Shown here one piece after another: positions 2,097 to 25,161 of a stretch of 25,161 nt of DNA; position 1 is the stretch's first letter, and each line of letters begins with the position of its first letter. The notes below the pieces were generated by a model. The model did no database searches, was not told the DNA's origin, and saw only the letters and a list, made by a program, of their open reading frames with translations. Origin of the DNA: a virus (taxonomy: Duplodnaviria; Heunggongvirae; Uroviricota; Caudoviricetes). The stretch is from IMG/VR virus record IMGVR_UViG_2851938318_000004. One strand, 5' to 3'. The position numbers and the translations under genes are program-made.

Positions 2097-2987
2097 TCAG
2101 GCTGCCAGATCATCGTTTCCGATGGAAGCATAATAAGCTTTTTCTGCTTCTGCCGGAGGAGTATGGCCCAGCCTTCCCAGCAATCGTCGATTGTTATACC
2201 AGTCCACCCACGTGAGTGTGGCCAGTTCCACTTCTGCACGGTTTTTCCAGCTCTTACGGTGTATTACCTCCGCTTTGTAAAGACCATTGATGCTCTCAGC
2301 CATCGCGTTGTCATACGAGTCGCCTGTACTCCCTGTTGATGCCAGTAATCCGGCTTCTTTTAGTCGCTCCGTATAGGCCAGTGACACATACTGAGAGCCT
2401 TTATCGCTGTGATGGATGGTGCCAGACGGACGACGGGCCCACAACGCCTGCTCCAGCGCATCCAGCACGAATGTCGTTTCCATAGACGATGAGACCCGCC
2501 ACCCCACGATGTATCCGGCAAACACATCAATGATAAACGCCACATAGACGAAGCCCTGCCATGTGCTGACGTAAGTAAAATCAGCCACCCACAGCTGGTC
2601 AGGTCGTTCTGCCACGAACTGACGGTTTACGCGGTCGCCTGCGGCAACGGCTTTCCGGCTGATGGTCGTACGGACCTTTTTACCCCGGAGAACACCGGCA
2701 AGTCCCATAACCGCCATGAGACGTGCCACTGTACATCTGGCCACCCTGATTCCTTCCCGTAACAACTGACGCCAGACTTTACGCACACCGTACACCTGAT
2801 GATTTTCATCGTATACGCGCTGTATCTCTCTCTTCAGCCAGTCGTCGTGCTGCGCACGGGCACTGCGTTTATCCGGATGATGTCGCTGTTGCTGACAATG
2901 GTAATACGTTGACGGGGCAATATGCAGTTCGCTGCATACCGGTCCGACCCCGTACTGCTCACGCAGCTTATCCAGCAGTGGCATCAT
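2097..2987 (-). CDS. IS3-family transposase OrfB (DDE integrase-like catalytic domain), IS629-like
   Basis: 296 aa ORF; 5' end overlaps orfA in the -1 frame. Confidence 0.9.
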
Positions 2988-3310
2988 TTTTTCCAGAGGC
3001 GGTCGAACTCCGCCTTCGCAAAATAAGCGGAAGCCTGGCGAAGGATATCGTTACTGCGGCGCAGTTCACGATTTTCACGTTCCAGCTCTTTCAGACGCTG
3101 ACGTTCAGCGCTGGTGAGCCCACCATCACCGCCCCCGGTATCCCGCTCATGCTGGCGAACCCAGACACGCAGAGTCTCCGGCGTACAGCCAATCTTTGGG
3201 GCAATGGAACAAATTGCCGCCCACTGTGAGTCATATTCATCCTGACTTTCCAGAACCATACGAATCGCCCGCTGACGGACTTCGGGGGAAAAACGAGTAT
3301 TTTTAGTCAT
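2984..3310 (-). CDS. IS3-family transposase OrfA (HTH DNA-binding), IS629-like
   Basis: 108 aa, [26 protein letters not shown]... with C-terminal leucine-zipper-like [21 protein letters not shown]. Confidence 0.9.
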
Positions 3311-5424: not shown

Positions 5425-5482
5425 AAAAAGGGCGGCAGAGCAGTCACGGAGTAAAACTGATACCGCCAAACGTCACCAGAAA
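5425..5482 (-). ncRNA. dicF: DicF-like small regulatory RNA (ftsZ-targeting sRNA family), about 58 nt including terminator U-tract
   Basis: Minus strand reads TTTCTGGTGACGTTTGGCGGTATCAGTTTTACTCCGTGACTGCTCTGCCGCCCTTTTT, with a GGCGG...CCGCC hairpin plus T-run. Lies about 170 nt upstream of dicB on the same strand, as in K-12. Confidence 0.7.
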
Positions 5483-6597: not shown

Positions 6598-7272
6598 TCA
6601 GTCTAAGTATTGATGTATTTGTGAAACTTTACCTTTAATGGTGTAACCACCATTCAGTTCGATGGGTTTGTAAAGCGGATTCAGTGACAACAGATAGATG
6701 TTTGGTCCGTCAATCGCAACTTTTTTTAGTGTTACGTTTGGCGTTCCTTCCAATTGGATTAAGATTATTTTTCCCACCAGTTCTCTAATGTTACTTGAGC
6801 ATGGTGTGATCAGCACGGTAGATCCGTCGGGGATGGTTGGGAGGCCGTTAGAGTTTGTCATCGCATCTCCCTCAACATGCAATAAAAAAGAGTTTTCAGC
6901 GGTTTTTGTCATGACATCAACCCAATTCTTAATACCAGGAATCTCGGTTACTGGACAACTCATATCCCAATAACCAGCCTGTTCCCACGTTAAAACGGGC
7001 AACCGGGCGATGTTGTCACTAATGTAAGGGTACTGATTCAGACGCAGATCATCGGCTTTATCGTGACCGTCCTTTCCATAAAGAATCCATTCAGGAGATT
7101 TGGAAAGCAATTTTGACAGTAGATACAAATTCTCACCGTCAGGTTTTGAAGAGCCATTTTCCCATTTTGTTACGGATACACGAGATATGCCGATTGCTTT
7201 CGCAACCTGCTGTTGGGTTAATCCAACGTCTTTTCGACGATTCCGAATACGTTCGCTGATAGTGTTTTTCAT
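6598..7272 (-). CDS. CI-type prophage repressor (N-terminal HTH, C-terminal S24 LexA-like autopeptidase domain), 224 aa from the second in-frame ATG
   Basis: HTH LTQQQVAKAIGISRVSVTKWENG; C-terminal domain with S24-like length and layout. Start at 7272 preferred over 7314 because it leaves a 91-bp operator region before cro. Confidence 0.85.
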   Translation of the reverse strand: MKNTISERIRNRRKDVGLTQQQVAKAIGISRVSVTKWENGSSKPDGENLYLLSKLLSKSPEWILYGKDGHDKADDLRLNQYPYISDNIARLPVLTWEQAGYWDMSCPVTEIPGIKNWVDVMTKTAENSFLLHVEGDAMTNSNGLPTIPDGSTVLITPCSSNIRELVGKIILIQLEGTPNVTLKKVAIDGPNIYLLSLNPLYKPIELNGGYTIKGKVSQIHQYLD

Positions 7273-7334
7273 GTAACCAATGTTACTACCAAGTGATGTT
7301 GCTATGGTTGACATTGTTATGTAACTATTGTTAC
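7273..7334. promoter_or_regulatory. OR-like operator/promoter region: two GTAAC-N4-GTTAC inverted repeats (7273-7286, 7321-7334) flanking a TTGACA hexamer (7308-7313)
   Basis: Inverted repeats read directly from sequence; the first abuts the cI start codon. Confidence 0.5.
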
Positions 7335-7363
7335 CCTTCTACTCGAAATAACAGGAGAGTTTT

Positions 7364-7579
7364 ATGTTCAAAGATGATGTTCTGCGCTATTTCAAAAAAA
7401 AGCGACTAGTAGCTGAGGCTCTTGGAATTTCACATGTGGCTGTTGTGCGGTGGAAAGCAGTTATTCCCAAACTTCGCGCAATGGAACTGGATGAAATTAC
7501 TAACGGTGAATTGAAATACAACCCAGAACTTTACAAGAAGCAGGATAGCACCTCAAACGAAGGAAAGAATGATTCATGA
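7364..7579 (+). CDS. Cro-like HTH regulator, 71 aa
   Basis: HTH segment KKRLVAEALGISHVAVVRWKAV; divergent from the repressor; AGGAG SD. Confidence 0.75.
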   Translation: MFKDDVLRYFKKKRLVAEALGISHVAVVRWKAVIPKLRAMELDEITNGELKYNPELYKKQDSTSNEGKNDS

Positions 7580-8001
7580 AAATCAAGCATGAACACATCC
7601 GCATGGCGATGAATGTCTGGGCGCATCCGGACGGCGAAAAAGTACCGGCTGCGAAAATTACCAAAGCGTATTTCGAGCTGGGAATGACGTTCCCGGAACT
7701 GTATGACGACAGCCATCCGGAAGCCCTAGCCCGTAATACCCAGAAAATTTTCCGCTGGGTAGAGAAAGACACCCCTGATGCAGTTGAAAAAATTCAGGCG
7801 TTGTTACCAGCGATCGAAAAGGCAATGCCACCTTTGCTGGTGGCCAGAATGCGCAGCCACAGTTCAGCTTATTTTCGGGAGCTGGTGGAGACGCGGGAGC
7901 GACTGGTGAGAGACGCTGATGATTTTGTAGCAGTGGCAATCGCCGGTTTCAATCAGATGAACCGTGGTGGCCCGGCAGGAAATGCTGTGGCAGTTCATTG
8001 A
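7576..8001 (+). CDS. ydaT: YdaT-like protein (CII functional-analogue family), 141 aa
   Basis: Begins MKIKHEHI; sits immediately after cro with an ATGA start/stop overlap, the position of cII. Confidence 0.6.
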   Translation: MKIKHEHIRMAMNVWAHPDGEKVPAAKITKAYFELGMTFPELYDDSHPEALARNTQKIFRWVEKDTPDAVEKIQALLPAIEKAMPPLLVARMRSHSSAYFRELVETRERLVRDADDFVAVAIAGFNQMNRGGPAGNAVAVH

Positions 8002-8072
8002 CTGACAATAGCCATATCGAATCGCTTCCGGCAACTCGTGAGTAAAAAGATTCGGTATCAGAAGAGGTGAGT

Positions 8073-9143
8073 ATGGCTAACGCCTGGCTCAGATTATGGC
8101 ATGACATGCCAAATGACCCTAAGTGGCGAACAATTGCCAGGGTGTCAGGGCAGCCAATTGCAACAGTGATGGCAGTGTATATCCACCTCCTGGTGAGCGC
8201 GTCACGAAATGTCACGCGAGGTCACATTGATGTCACGACAGAAGATTTGGCAAGTGCGCTCGACGTGACAGAAGAGGTAATTGATTCAATTTTGCAGACG
8301 ATGCAGGGGCGGGTACTTGATGGTGATTTAATCACTGGATGGGAAAAACGCCAGGTGCTGAAAGAGGACAACGGCAATATTTCGCAAACCGCAAAATCTC
8401 CGGCAGAGCGCAAGAGGGCGCAGCGAGAGAGGGAAAGAAAGCGGGAACAAAATGGCGATTGTCACGGCGAGTCACGAAATGTCACGCACATGTCACGACG
8501 AGTCACGACAGATAAAGATACAGATAAAGATACAGATCAAGAAGATCAAAACACTATGGTCCATGGCGTAAAAAACGCCACGAACCAGGCAGGGGATGTT
8601 CAGACCGTCAATCCTGGTCAGCCAGCAGGCACGACACCGGAAGCCGATTCAGCGTATGCGCTGAAAGCCGATTCGGGCGCTGTGCAGCAGGTGATGACCG
8701 CAAGGCAGGAGCAATCACACCAACTTCAGCAGCCTGAAGCCGATTCCGCCATTCAGCGGGAAGCCGATCGGGTAGTCCCGGAAAACACCGGTCAGTCTGT
8801 GGGACGAGTGGATTATCCGGATGTGTTCGAACAGGTCTGGCGGGAGTACCCGTTGCGTGCTGGGGCAAACCCGAAGAAATCCGCTTTCAGTGCCTGGAAG
8901 GCCAGATTACGCGAGGGGGTGCCACCAGAGGCCATGCTGGATGGCGTGAGGCGTTACGCAAGATACTTGGCGGCTACCGGGAAAACGGGAACGGAATTTG
9001 TTCAGCGAGCGACGACGTTTTTTGGACCGGACCGGAATTTTGAGAACCCCTGGTTGCTCCCGGTAAGCGGCACGAACAACCAGCGTTGTGTGAATCATAT
9101 TTCTGAACCGGATAACGAAATTCCGCCGGGCTTCAGGGGGTAA
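8073..9143 (+). CDS. Replication initiation protein (lambda O-like role) with the origin iterons embedded in its coding sequence
   Basis: Third gene of the rightward operon; GAGG SD; contains two clusters of 10-11 bp-spaced GTCACG repeats and an AT-rich repeat. Confidence 0.65.
   Translation: MANAWLRLWHDMPNDPKWRTIARVSGQPIATVMAVYIHLLVSASRNVTRGHIDVTTEDLASALDVTEEVIDSILQTMQGRVLDGDLITGWEKRQVLKEDNGNISQTAKSPAERKRAQRERERKREQNGDCHGESRNVTHMSRRVTTDKDTDKDTDQEDQNTMVHGVKNATNQAGDVQTVNPGQPAGTTPEADSAYALKADSGAVQQVMTARQEQSHQLQQPEADSAIQREADRVVPENTGQSVGRVDYPDVFEQVWREYPLRAGANPKKSAFSAWKARLREGVPPEAMLDGVRRYARYLAATGKTGTEFVQRATTFFGPDRNFENPWLLPVSGTNNQRCVNHISEPDNEIPPGFRG
8201..8240 (+). repeat. Iteron cluster 1: four GTCACG/GTCACA motifs at helical-turn spacing (8201, 8211, 8221, 8232)
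   Basis: Read directly from sequence. Confidence 0.5.
8461..8552 (+). repeat. Iteron cluster 2 (five GTCACG at 8461, 8471, 8481, 8492, 8502) followed by AT-rich GATAAAGATACA x2 and two GATC sites: putative replication origin core
   Basis: Read directly from sequence; the layout parallels ori-lambda inside O. Confidence 0.6.
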
Positions 9144-9183
9144 GTGTTAATTTCTGGTCATGAGGTAATTTTCAGGAGGGCTT

Positions 9184-9606
9184 GTGGCAAAAGTTTTTAC
9201 ACAAGAAGAGCGGGAAAAAATTAAAGGGCAGGTTCTTGAACTCGTACGCCAGAGTGGGCGCGAGACGTTACGACAACTGGAAGCTAAAACTGGGGCAACA
9301 AGATATCTGATGAGCGTTCTGGCCAGAGAGCTGGTTGCCAGTGGCGATGTATACAACTCTGGTTACGGGTTATTCCCGTCTGAACAGGCGCGTAAGGACT
9401 GGCAAAATACCCGTAAAAAGCTCTCAAGGGCAAAGCTGAAGAAACCTGCAGTGGTTGATCCGGACCTTATCTGGTCGTTACCAGACGGCGAAATACGCCG
9501 CTACGACAGGCACCAGAACATAATTTGTCGTGAGAGCAGGAGGAGCGAAGTTATGCAGCGTGTGCTGGCGTTCTATCGGGGAAACTTTCAGGAGGTGATG
9601 GAGTGA
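9184..9606 (+). CDS. Hypothetical protein, 140 aa, GTG start, possible winged-helix N-terminus
   Basis: AGGAGG SD before GTG; occupies the position where a helicase loader is expected but has no Walker motifs. Confidence 0.5.
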   Translation: MAKVFTQEEREKIKGQVLELVRQSGRETLRQLEAKTGATRYLMSVLARELVASGDVYNSGYGLFPSEQARKDWQNTRKKLSRAKLKKPAVVDPDLIWSLPDGEIRRYDRHQNIICRESRRSEVMQRVLAFYRGNFQEVME

Positions 9607-9899
9607 GGGTGAGAGTTTATATTGCCGGTCCAATGACGGGATATGAAAATTTCAACCGTGAGGCATTTCACAAGGTGGAAGAGGAACTGAAACGGGAAGG
9701 GCATACCGTCTTAAACCCGGCAGTACTTCCGGACGGGCTGACACAGCCGCACTACATGGATATTTGCATGGCAATGATTCGTTGTGTGGATGCGATTTAC
9801 ATGCTGAATGGCTGGCAGCGGTCAGCGGGCGCTAAGGCAGAGCTGGCACTGGCGGAGAGACTGGGGCATGCGGTGATTTATCAGGAGGTGGCTCAATGA
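9603..9899 (+). CDS. DUF4406 / nucleoside 2-deoxyribosyltransferase-like small protein, 98 aa
   Basis: N-terminal YIAGPMTG motif typical of that fold; AGGAGG SD. Confidence 0.55.
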   Translation: MRVRVYIAGPMTGYENFNREAFHKVEEELKREGHTVLNPAVLPDGLTQPHYMDICMAMIRCVDAIYMLNGWQRSAGAKAELALAERLGHAVIYQEVAQ

Positions 9900-12569: not shown

Positions 12570-12814
12570 ATTCATTACGATATGGGAATTCCCATATCGG
12601 GTAAAAACGGTTTGCGGTAAAGCGAGAGTTAAGTAGAATTGCTGCGGGTGCTTGAGGCTGTCTGCCTCGGGCATGCCACCGTAAGGCAGACAGAGAAAAG
12701 CCCCAGTTAACATTACGCGTCCTGCAAGACGCTTAACATTAATCTGAGGCCCAATCTATGCTTCACAAACGTAGGTTAGCCTCTTACGTGCCGAAAGGCA
12801 AGGAGAAGCAGGCT

Positions 12815-12970
12815 ATGAAGCAGCAAAAGGCGATGTTAATCGCCCTGATCGTCATCTGTTTAACCGTCATAGTGACGGCACTGGTAACGAGGAAAGACCT
12901 CTGCGAGGTACGAGTCCGAACCGGCCAGACGGAGGTCGCTGTCTTCACAGCTTACGAACCTGAGGAGTAA
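12815..12970 (+). CDS. hokD: Hok/Gef-family type I toxin (51 aa), HokD/RelF-like
   Basis: MKQQKAMLIALIVICLTVIVTALVTRKDLCEVRVRTGQTEVAVFTAYEPEE; in-frame upstream extension resembles a mok-like leader; inverted repeat CTGTCTGCC ... GGCAGACAG in the 5' leader. Confidence 0.85.
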   Translation: MKQQKAMLIALIVICLTVIVTALVTRKDLCEVRVRTGQTEVAVFTAYEPEE

Positions 12971-24838: not shown

Positions 24839-25161
24839 TTTTTCCAGAGGCGGTCGAACTCCGCCTTCGCAAAATAAGCGGAAGCCTGGCGAAGGATATC
24901 GTTACTGCGGCGCAGTTCACGATTTTCACGTTCCAGCTCTTTCAGACGCTGACGTTCAGCGCTGGTGAGCCCACCATCACCGCCCCCGGTATCCCGCTCA
25001 TGCTGGCGAACCCAGACACGCAGAGTCTCCGGCGTACAGCCAATCTTTGGGGCAATGGAACAAATTGCCGCCCACTGTGAGTCATATTCATCCTGACTTT
25101 CCAGAACCATACGAATCGCCCGCTGACGGACTTCGGGGGAAAAACGAGTATTTTTAGTCAT
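24835..25161 (-). CDS. IS3-family transposase OrfA (IS629-like), copy 2; start codon is the last three bases of the window
   Basis: Protein identical to the copy 1 OrfA. Confidence 0.9.

Follow-up and report, generated by a model that had tools for sequence, protein, structure and literature searches.

Where does the prophage contained in the 25,161-nucleotide virus sequence IMGVR_UViG_2851938318_000004 (Caudoviricetes; this whole stretch of DNA is referred to as the window) start its vegetative replication, and which protein recognizes the start site? The question is raised by clusters of the hexamer GTCACG within a gene that extends from an ATG at 8073 to 9143 on the plus strand, encodes 356 amino acids and, according to the open reading frame (ORF) translation, is the third rightward gene, after cro and a YdaT/cII-like gene. 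Its product matches the PHROGs family phrog_3729, 'replication initiation protein' (E = 2e-257), and is termed the initiator below. The hexamer clusters and an adjoining AT-rich tract are likely to represent the origin from which a lambdoid prophage starts its vegetative replication, embedded in its own initiator gene. Such an origin was already proposed in a preliminary description of this DNA, and the proposal is now supported by selection on the hexamers at the DNA level, by the co-variation of two hexamer arrays, by the conservation of the AT tract and by the exchange of these elements together with the N-terminal domain of the initiator. The location of the repeats within the third rightward gene is equally borne out by the gene map.

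The elements of the putative origin are the following.
8201-8237, plus strand: iteron array 1, with GTCACG at 8201, 8211 and 8232 and the degenerate copy GTCACA at 8221, at spacings of 10, 10 and 11 bp.
8264-8269, minus strand: inverted GTCACG copy (CGTGAC on the plus strand), present in many homologues at a gene offset of about 192.
8461-8507, plus strand: iteron array 2, with GTCACG at 8461, 8471, 8481, 8492 and 8502, at spacings of 10, 10, 11 and 10 bp.
8508-8552, plus strand: (GATAMA)n AT-rich tract, putative unwinding element and mosaic junction, made up of ACAGATAAAGAT x2.9 and then CAAGAAGATCAAAAC.
8557-8587, no strand assigned: imperfect palindrome TGGTCCATGGCGT-AAAAA-ACGCCACGAACCA with a 13-pair stem, directly to the right of the AT tract.

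Nine of the 18 GTCACG copies that the window contains on both strands are found within 307 bp, where 0.12 copies are expected (Poisson P of about 1.6e-14). The preliminary description had counted four plus five GTCACG motifs at a spacing of 10-11 bp. This spacing was confirmed for both arrays, and the five copies of array 2 are exact, but array 1 consists of three exact copies and a degenerate one, and the inverted copy at 8264-8269 had been missed. The degenerate copy at 8221 is an exact GTCACG in most other species, and over 23 loci the hexamers were spaced by 10 bp 96 times and by 11 bp 29 times. Array 1 is separated from array 2 by 260 bp and has no AT-rich neighbour. It encodes amino acids 43-55 of the initiator, corresponding to the end of a helix (residues 29-45) and a loop (residues 46-55), and array 2 encodes amino acids 130-145 of a linker that is disordered in the AlphaFold2 (AF2) prediction and to which the AT tract contributes codons as well. 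As had been noted earlier, the repeats are translated into SRNVT segments, and this peptide is present twice in the initiator, at residues 44-48 and 134-138.

Several observations bear on whether the DNA or the peptide is maintained. The hexamers occupy codon phases 0, 1 and 2. The window gene was aligned with 22 homologues that were taken from different species and share 56-91% protein identity, and it was scored whether the base of the window is kept: four-fold degenerate third positions were conserved to 96% within hexamers (n = 11) as compared to 36% outside (n = 30; Mann-Whitney p = 6e-7). The four-fold sites of the array-1 hexamers showed 91-100% conservation over 23 species, and the third base of codon 65 (GTG), located in the inverted copy, was G in 19 of 19 sequences, whereas synonymous sites flanking the hexamers (codons 45, 49 and 142) vary freely. 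Another example is provided by Escherichia coli NCTC86, in which the 5' part of the gene is 88% identical: a +1/-1 indel pair in array 2 alters the peptide from ESRNVTHM to ESRICHDM but keeps all five hexamers. In array 1, this strain has a 21-bp insertion that adds two more 10-11-bp units, one being an exact GTCACG and the other a degenerate GTCACT. Among 28 distinct close variants, one of the 42 variable columns in the first 480 nucleotides falls into a hexamer, as compared to 5.25 expected, and variation among close E. coli variants affects the array-2 spacers but not the hexamers. The repeat signal thus resides in the DNA and not in the protein. Since the period of 10-11 bp is not a multiple of three, a peptide repeat cannot explain the array.

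Array 2 is followed by the AT-rich tract. The preliminary description had reported a tandem AT-rich repeat with two GATC sites at this place, and indeed Tandem Repeats Finder identified ACAGATAAAGAT x2.9 at 8508-8542 with 95% matches, with the GATC sites located at 8535 and 8544. The AT content is 65-68% over 8500-8559 as compared to 52% for the entire window, and the least stable 40-mer of both the gene and the region 7300-9700 begins at 8512 (dG of -43.4 versus a mean of -54.6; z of 2.5; 99.2th percentile of the window). In every iteron class identified, array 2 passes directly into (C)AGATAAAGATAAAGA... or CAGATACAGATACAGA..., and the AT content of the tract, which ranges from 47 to 84% across loci with two of the 47-56% values being artefacts of the delimitation of array 2, is at least 60% in nearly all of them, even in genomes with 31-40% AT. 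The palindrome next to the tract was the only feature above shuffled sequences in a promoter and terminator scan of 7250-9700, and a scan with Rfam revealed no RNA family in the origin region. A relative (L004) shows a paired change in the inner stem, from GGCGT/ACGCC to GGCGA/TCGCC, and an inverted repeat is found at this position in several other loci, but not in all. On this weak evidence, the palindrome may form part of the origin.

The two-array layout is conserved far beyond the window. When one genome per species was scanned, homologues of the N-terminal 129 amino acids of the initiator were detected at 61 loci. About 25 species keep GTCACG at gene offsets of about 129, 139, 149 and 160 and again at about 370-450. 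These two-array homologues share 56-70% protein identity and are from gamma- and betaproteobacteria, including Shigella, E. albertii, Rahnella, Serratia, Pseudomonas, Stenotrophomonas, Gilvimarinus, Aquitalea, Bordetella, Acidovorax, Castellaniella and Chromobacterium; the same layout is present in the deposited genomes of Pseudomonas phage P7869 and Aeromonas phage pAEv1818. In all homologues of the GTCACG class, array 2 is found in the same place with 3-5 copies, and the flanks of these loci (4.6 kb) contain 0-2 copies in most cases and up to 5. More distant homologues possess other motifs in the same two places, namely, CGAACGC (about 15 loci), GTAACG (5), GTGACG (1) and AACGCA (3), and with few exceptions a single motif fills both arrays of a locus. 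The preliminary description had envisaged initiator homologues without the repeats; the opposite was found, since the repeats are either kept or replaced in both arrays together. Differing iteron classes occur in phages of one host genus, and the reader of the hexamer must therefore be encoded by the phage.

The initiator was identified in 1646 of the 5426 complete E. coli genomes (about 30%; at least 80% coverage), where its RefSeq label is mostly 'hypothetical protein', and the family of its N-terminal domain comprises 2,255 cluster representatives at E-values of 1e-3 or below, in Proteobacteria and beyond. A non-homologous N-terminal domain was found in E. coli O157:H7 SS52, which has its own AAGGGGCTTC repeats at 11-bp spacing; these form two arrays separated by 245 bp, and a purine-rich repeat comes next. 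In IMG/VR, triple GTCACG arrays are located inside genes with a recognized N-terminal domain in 90 of 120 contigs, and in about a dozen of the remaining contigs they are located in linkers of other organiser-like ORFs. Phased GTCACG arrays were also observed in non-coding DNA of unrelated viral contigs (L156, L166, L175, L181, L220, L232, L262 and L269). The hexamer may serve as an iteron in other replicon types, too.

The genes next to the initiator, for which the RefSeq annotation around an identical gene was also consulted, are the following.
6598-7314, minus strand: cI-like repressor gene (Pfam HTH_3 and Peptidase_S24).
7364-7579, plus strand: cro (Pfam P22_Cro), diverging from the cI-like repressor gene.
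7576-8001, plus strand: YdaT/cII-like gene (Pfam YdaT_toxin).
9184-9606, plus strand: DUF977 gene in the 'ren' position (PF06163, E = 3e-29; phrog_142, 'Ren-like exclusion protein').

This is the setting of the early-right operon of a lambdoid prophage, in which rightward transcription crosses the repeat region; downstream of the initiator, the DUF977 gene is followed by a DUF4406 gene (Pfam). The Pfam search detected no helicase-loader gene of the lambda P or DnaC/IstB type downstream of the initiator in the window. This is in agreement with the preliminary description, which had also suggested a hidden Markov model search of 9184-9606; that search returned DUF977 and no loader domain. Of 80 viral contigs with the same N-terminal domain, 66 have the arrangement of the window, namely, the C-terminal module followed directly by DUF977, and 10 have a DnaC/IstB-like ATPase between the initiator and DUF977; this search yielded near-identical E. 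coli copies and is suited to counting downstream arrangements, not to assessing divergence. DUF977 was considered as a hidden loader and rejected, as it co-occurs with DnaC-like and P-like loaders in relatives.

Megablast matches in E. coli either stop at query position 458 (8530 of the window, in the AT tract) or begin at 476 (8548, at the end of the tract). The unit of exchange consists of the N-terminal domain together with the two arrays and some or all of the AT tract, and it is found with varied C-terminal modules and varied downstream genes. In NCTC86 and E. albertii, the C-terminal module contains the DnaT DNA-binding domain (PF17948, E = 1e-17) and is followed by a lambda-P-like gene; in phage P7869, a primase-helicase is encoded downstream; and in phage pAEv1818, a DnaC-like gene comes after a DnaT-like C-terminus, as in the host dnaT-dnaC operon. 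This likeness of the pAEv1818 pair suggests that dnaT, like dnaC, has come from phages. The loader is an optional or exchangeable part of the module. The sister modules with PF17948 are located at L003 2501-3995 (NCTC86) and L149 2929-4601 (phage pAEv1818). Another arrangement, seen at L147 3001-3546 and in proteins P0042, P0060 and P0073, is the fusion of the N-terminal domain, after about residue 95, to an HNH endonuclease. These chimeras keep the four GTCACG of array 1, lack array 2 and the AT tract, and are followed by a different replication-type ORF.

The initiator itself is largely outside the curated protein families. Neither Pfam nor NCBIfam gave a match above threshold, and no lambda O model was matched in scans of these two databases up to E-values of 10 and 1. 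Phage_rep_org_N (PF09681) scored 16.6 bits as compared to a cut-off of 23.3 (E = 0.008 for the domain alone), and TIGR01714 scored 15.5 bits as compared to a cut-off of 49.8 (E = 0.015); both align over the full length of the model but are below threshold, and 3 of 62 relatives reach an E-value below 0.01 with Phage_rep_org_N. By these scores, the initiator would be at best a distant relative of this family. At the level of the fold, it is matched best by the two domains of DnaD, and a Foldseek search of the full AF2 model against the PDB gave no significant match. The model was built on a patchwork alignment and has an overall predicted local distance difference test (pLDDT) score of 70. It contains a confident, winged-helix-like helical domain at residues 1-81 and disorder from residue 129 to about 240. 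Three further parts of the protein are of relevance.
8403-8447, plus strand: basic helix, amino acids 111-125 (AERKRAQRERERKRE), candidate DNA-reading element (AF2 helix 110-127, pLDDT of about 87).
8805-9062, plus strand: C-terminal helical domain, amino acids 245-330, confident in AF2, with a presumed role in helicase or loader recruitment.
9078-9140, plus strand: C-terminal tail ...CVNHISEPDNEIPPGFRG, matching the last approximately 22 residues of host DnaT.

In the basic helix, R118 is invariant and R113 nearly so (at least 90%). Residue 117 (codon 8421-8423) is Q in all members of the GTCACG class, W in 93% of the GAACGC class and Y or F in the GTAACG class, and it is the sole substituted position that discriminates between classes without being encoded by iterons; the other discriminating positions, amino acids 101 and 107-109, represent an insertion/deletion. 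It may be a specificity determinant, which is to be taken as a lead that is confounded by phylogeny. The C-terminal tail matches the PDB chains 6aep (E = 0.003), 2ru8 and 9zbt_D, as well as the NCBIfam model for DnaT (NF002770) at model positions 156-179 of 179 (E = 7e-4; 19.2 bits versus a cut-off of 201), and three other initiator types end in the same DnaT-like tail. The 2026 paper on the preprimosome structure does not state a role for the extreme C-terminal tail of DnaT. The tail ...SEPDNEIPPGFRG has acidic residues followed by I-P-P-G-F and by eye resembles the tip of SSB (DDDIPF). The acidic-hydrophobic tip of SSB is a peptide to which replication and repair proteins generally dock.

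Taken together, the initiator would be a two-domain, DnaD-like replisome organiser. Its N-terminal third, comprising the winged-helix-like domain and the basic helix, would bind the GTCACG hexamers, which recur with each helical turn along the same face of the DNA, in the five-site array at 8461-8507 and in the four sites plus inverted site at 8201-8269. The initiator would load on array 2 cooperatively, head to tail, and thereby distort the DNA, and array 1, at a distance of 260 bp, may assist by looping. The complex at array 2, together with negative supercoiling and rightward transcription, would then open the (GATAMA)n tract at 8508-8552, and the C-terminal domain and the DnaT-like tail would bring host DnaB to the opened DNA. 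Since the phage has no loader gene, delivery of the helicase via host DnaC or the host primosome is proposed. In this scheme, we infer the binder of the hexamers, the unwinding of the tract and the route of helicase recruitment.

A number of points weigh against an origin that works in this manner. The predicted 'recognition' helix of the N-terminal domain (amino acids 66-81) is acidic, and the N-terminal domain of DnaD is an oligomerisation scaffold and not a DNA reader. The co-variation between the array-1 hexamer and the peptide is automatic and does not constitute independent evidence; because the hexamers encode that peptide, its link with the iteron class was set aside as evidence of recognition. 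Homology with G38P, the replisome organiser of phage SPP1, was not detected (hhalign probability of 0.15% for the N-terminal and 0.26% for the C-terminal domain), and experimental work on replication, binding or unwinding in this family was not found in the searchable literature. In addition, the prophage as a whole bears insertion sequences (IS) and may be defective, so that this copy of the origin may never fire.

It seems improbable that the arrays are initiator sites that serve mainly for control, with the true start located elsewhere. Autoregulation of the pR operon, handcuffing between the arrays to set copy number, or the exclusion of related phages are roles that could be imagined, given that array 1 has no AT-rich neighbour and is 260 bp away from array 2, and that the HNH chimeras retain array 1 alone. 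Extra initiator sites have such control functions, or arrest forks, in iteron plasmids and in SPP1 with its oriL and oriR (PMC5737612, PMC3485210). However, array 2 always abuts the least stable, family-conserved AT tract, which is the signature of a firing origin, and the replication region showed neither a further iteron cluster nor an AT tract of comparable conservation. A control role of array 1 is furthermore compatible with an origin at array 2 and does not compete with it.

About as improbable is that the elements serve another DNA transaction, either as a recombination 'linker' or as sites for the DUF977 or YdaT-like protein. Mosaic junctions are indeed located within the (GATAMA)n tract or at its end, this tract is common to otherwise divergent genes, and DUF977 is a predicted DNA-binding protein that is always present in the module. 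Nevertheless, the iteron class tracks the N-terminal module of the initiator and not the downstream genes: the same N-terminal domain and GTCACG arrays are found together with DUF977 proteins that share 61-100% identity, and also in Pseudomonas and Aeromonas phages that lack DUF977. Recombination linkers do not need arrays of 3-5 sites in helical phase next to an AT tract, and it is to be expected that recombination also takes place at a tract that is shared. As for the repeats merely following from a repetitive peptide (SRNVT.., DKDT..) or from slippage in the low-complexity linker, devoid of a function at the DNA level, the repeats are translated, SRNVT and DKDT recur in the protein and the linker is predicted to be disordered. 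We assign next to no probability to this explanation, which was rejected on the basis of the three codon phases, the near-invariant synonymous sites in hexamers next to free neighbours, and the local frameshift of NCTC86 mentioned above. An origin embedded in the initiator gene is thus the reading that is retained here.

The remainder of the window contains additional features of lambdoid prophages. Two copies of an IS3-family element are present at 2097-3310 and 23948-25161 (labelled IS1203-like by RefSeq in a related strain), and both contain an ALIL frameshift pseudoknot (2913-3029 and 24764-24880). The first copy splits an exonuclease gene (1002-2042/3362-4786), and the second one is cut by the end of the window. 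The DicF antisense small RNA (sRNA) adjoining dicB (5430-5481, minus strand) and a hok/sok-type toxin-antitoxin locus with the sok RNA (12646-12820, plus strand) are usual cargo of Qin/Rac-like prophages. Genes for tRNA-Met(CAT; Ile according to RefSeq), tRNA-Arg(TCG) and tRNA-Arg(TCT) at 17546-17795 are followed by the sRNA STnc100 (17872-18062) and a SASA-family esterase of 616 amino acids (18285-20135). The order from the tRNAs to the esterase corresponds to the layout of the late region of Stx phages, without stx genes in between. An initiator gene with 100% identity is carried by a prophage adjoining yccA in E. coli E2855 (NZ_AP018796). Collinearity between the window and this strain is lost downstream of the holin gene, the IS positions differ, and three places in E2855 match the gene.

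An origin inside the initiator gene, composed of iterons and an AT tract, is of a textbook kind. What differs here is the use of 6-bp direct repeats at each helical turn in two arrays, one of which is located in a folded domain, and of one (GATAMA)n tract for all classes. Also different is an initiator outside the curated models, which in most copies comes without a loader and with a DnaT-like tail. A description of this origin and initiator family was not found in the searchable literature, in which the older phage literature is thinly covered, so that an earlier account is possible; the published 'Eru' replication types of Stx phages make no mention of iterons, DnaT or a replisome organiser. 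It is a tentative and rather unlikely suggestion that the family follows a modular origin 'grammar' that is undescribed for phages and fires without a phage loader via the DnaT-like tail. Such a grammar may consist of an interchangeable hexamer address (GTCACG, GTAACG, GTGACG or CGAACGC) per helical turn, two arrays and one (GATAMA)n tract, and the EPDxEIPPGF tip of the tail could plug into the host restart primosome or DnaC. If this were true, these modules would be the likely source of the enterobacterial dnaT-dnaC operon.

A defined origin would provide a marker of replicon specificity by which lambdoid prophages, among them relatives of Stx phages, could be typed, and a compact origin for vectors that depends on the host loader. 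The iteron classes and their matched initiators form a natural series in which changes of origin specificity can be studied, and the DnaT-like modules bear on the way in which enterobacteria acquired dnaT-dnaC. Should it turn out to be only an ordinary origin, an annotation gap would still be filled. The interest of the system is chiefly due to its abundance in E. coli and to its experimentally tractable iteron classes and exchangeable recruitment modules.

With regard to known systems, the preliminary description had likened the locus to the ori-lambda-within-O layout. The likeness holds for the layout, but not for the initiator as a relative of lambda O, since no lambda O model was matched. 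Ori-lambda lies midway within the O gene and consists of iterons and an AT-rich tract (PMC7466680). In both cases, the origin is placed between the coding parts for the DNA-binding N-terminus and for C-terminal recruitment, with the iterons preceding the AT tract; the gene follows cII in the pR operon; and the N-terminal module plus origin is exchanged separately from the C-terminus. In lambda, specificity resides in a unit made up of the N-terminus of O and the origin, and interaction with the loader in a unit made up of the C-terminus; the origin has a single array of four iterons of about 19 bp, and each iteron is an inverted repeat to which an O dimer binds. In contrast, the locus described here has direct hexamers of 6 bp that recur every 10-11 bp and form two arrays, one of them in the coding sequence of a folded domain, has no P gene and encodes a C-terminus that ends in the DnaT-like tail. 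A further likeness to the O proteins of lambda and Stx phages (six iterons) is that extra iterons add residues to the protein, as seen in NCTC86. The same E. coli gene pool contains a variant annotated as lambda O but lacking a Pfam match (L005), which has five iterons at 23-bp spacing, followed by ACAGAGAATACA x3, and the same DnaT-like tail. Gene 18 of P22 is another case of an origin inside an initiator gene.

Another system that shares features with this locus is SPP1, whose oriL is embedded in gene 38, contains iterons and an unwinding element, and is sufficient with 356 bp (PMC5737612). G38P is likewise a non-AAA+ 'replisome organiser' with the origin, composed of AB boxes and an AT-rich unwinding element, in its own gene (PMC5737612), and the PHROG label 'DnaD-like' is common to G38P and the initiator of the window. 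SPP1 also possesses a second set of binding sites, oriR, which is far away, whereas here the second set is 260 bp upstream in the same gene. G38P matches PF09524 (Phg_2220_C) at an E-value of 2e-20, as opposed to the initiator, in which this family was not detected, and it works with its own loader G39P and helicase G40P, for which no such genes are present here. The direct repeats in helical phase beside an AT-rich unwinding element, with the cognate initiator in cis, resemble the iteron plasmids (RepA, pi, TrfA). The iterons of these plasmids comprise 17-22 bp, are located outside the rep gene and are usually accompanied by DnaA boxes, whereas here no DnaA box with up to one mismatch is found within 8000-8600.

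The initiator scores below the family thresholds for Phage_rep_org_N. DnaD, a replication initiation protein of Firmicutes, is not known to recognise iterons by itself and acts downstream of DnaA. The likeness to DnaT is restricted to the last approximately 22 residues (SEPDxxIPPGFRG): the initiator is without the DNA-binding domain (PF17948) and the N-terminal domain of DnaT, whereas the sister module of NCTC86 has PF17948. A comparable combination has been noted earlier in DopC, in which the C-terminal motif of DnaT is fused to an O-like N-terminus (PMC5509034).

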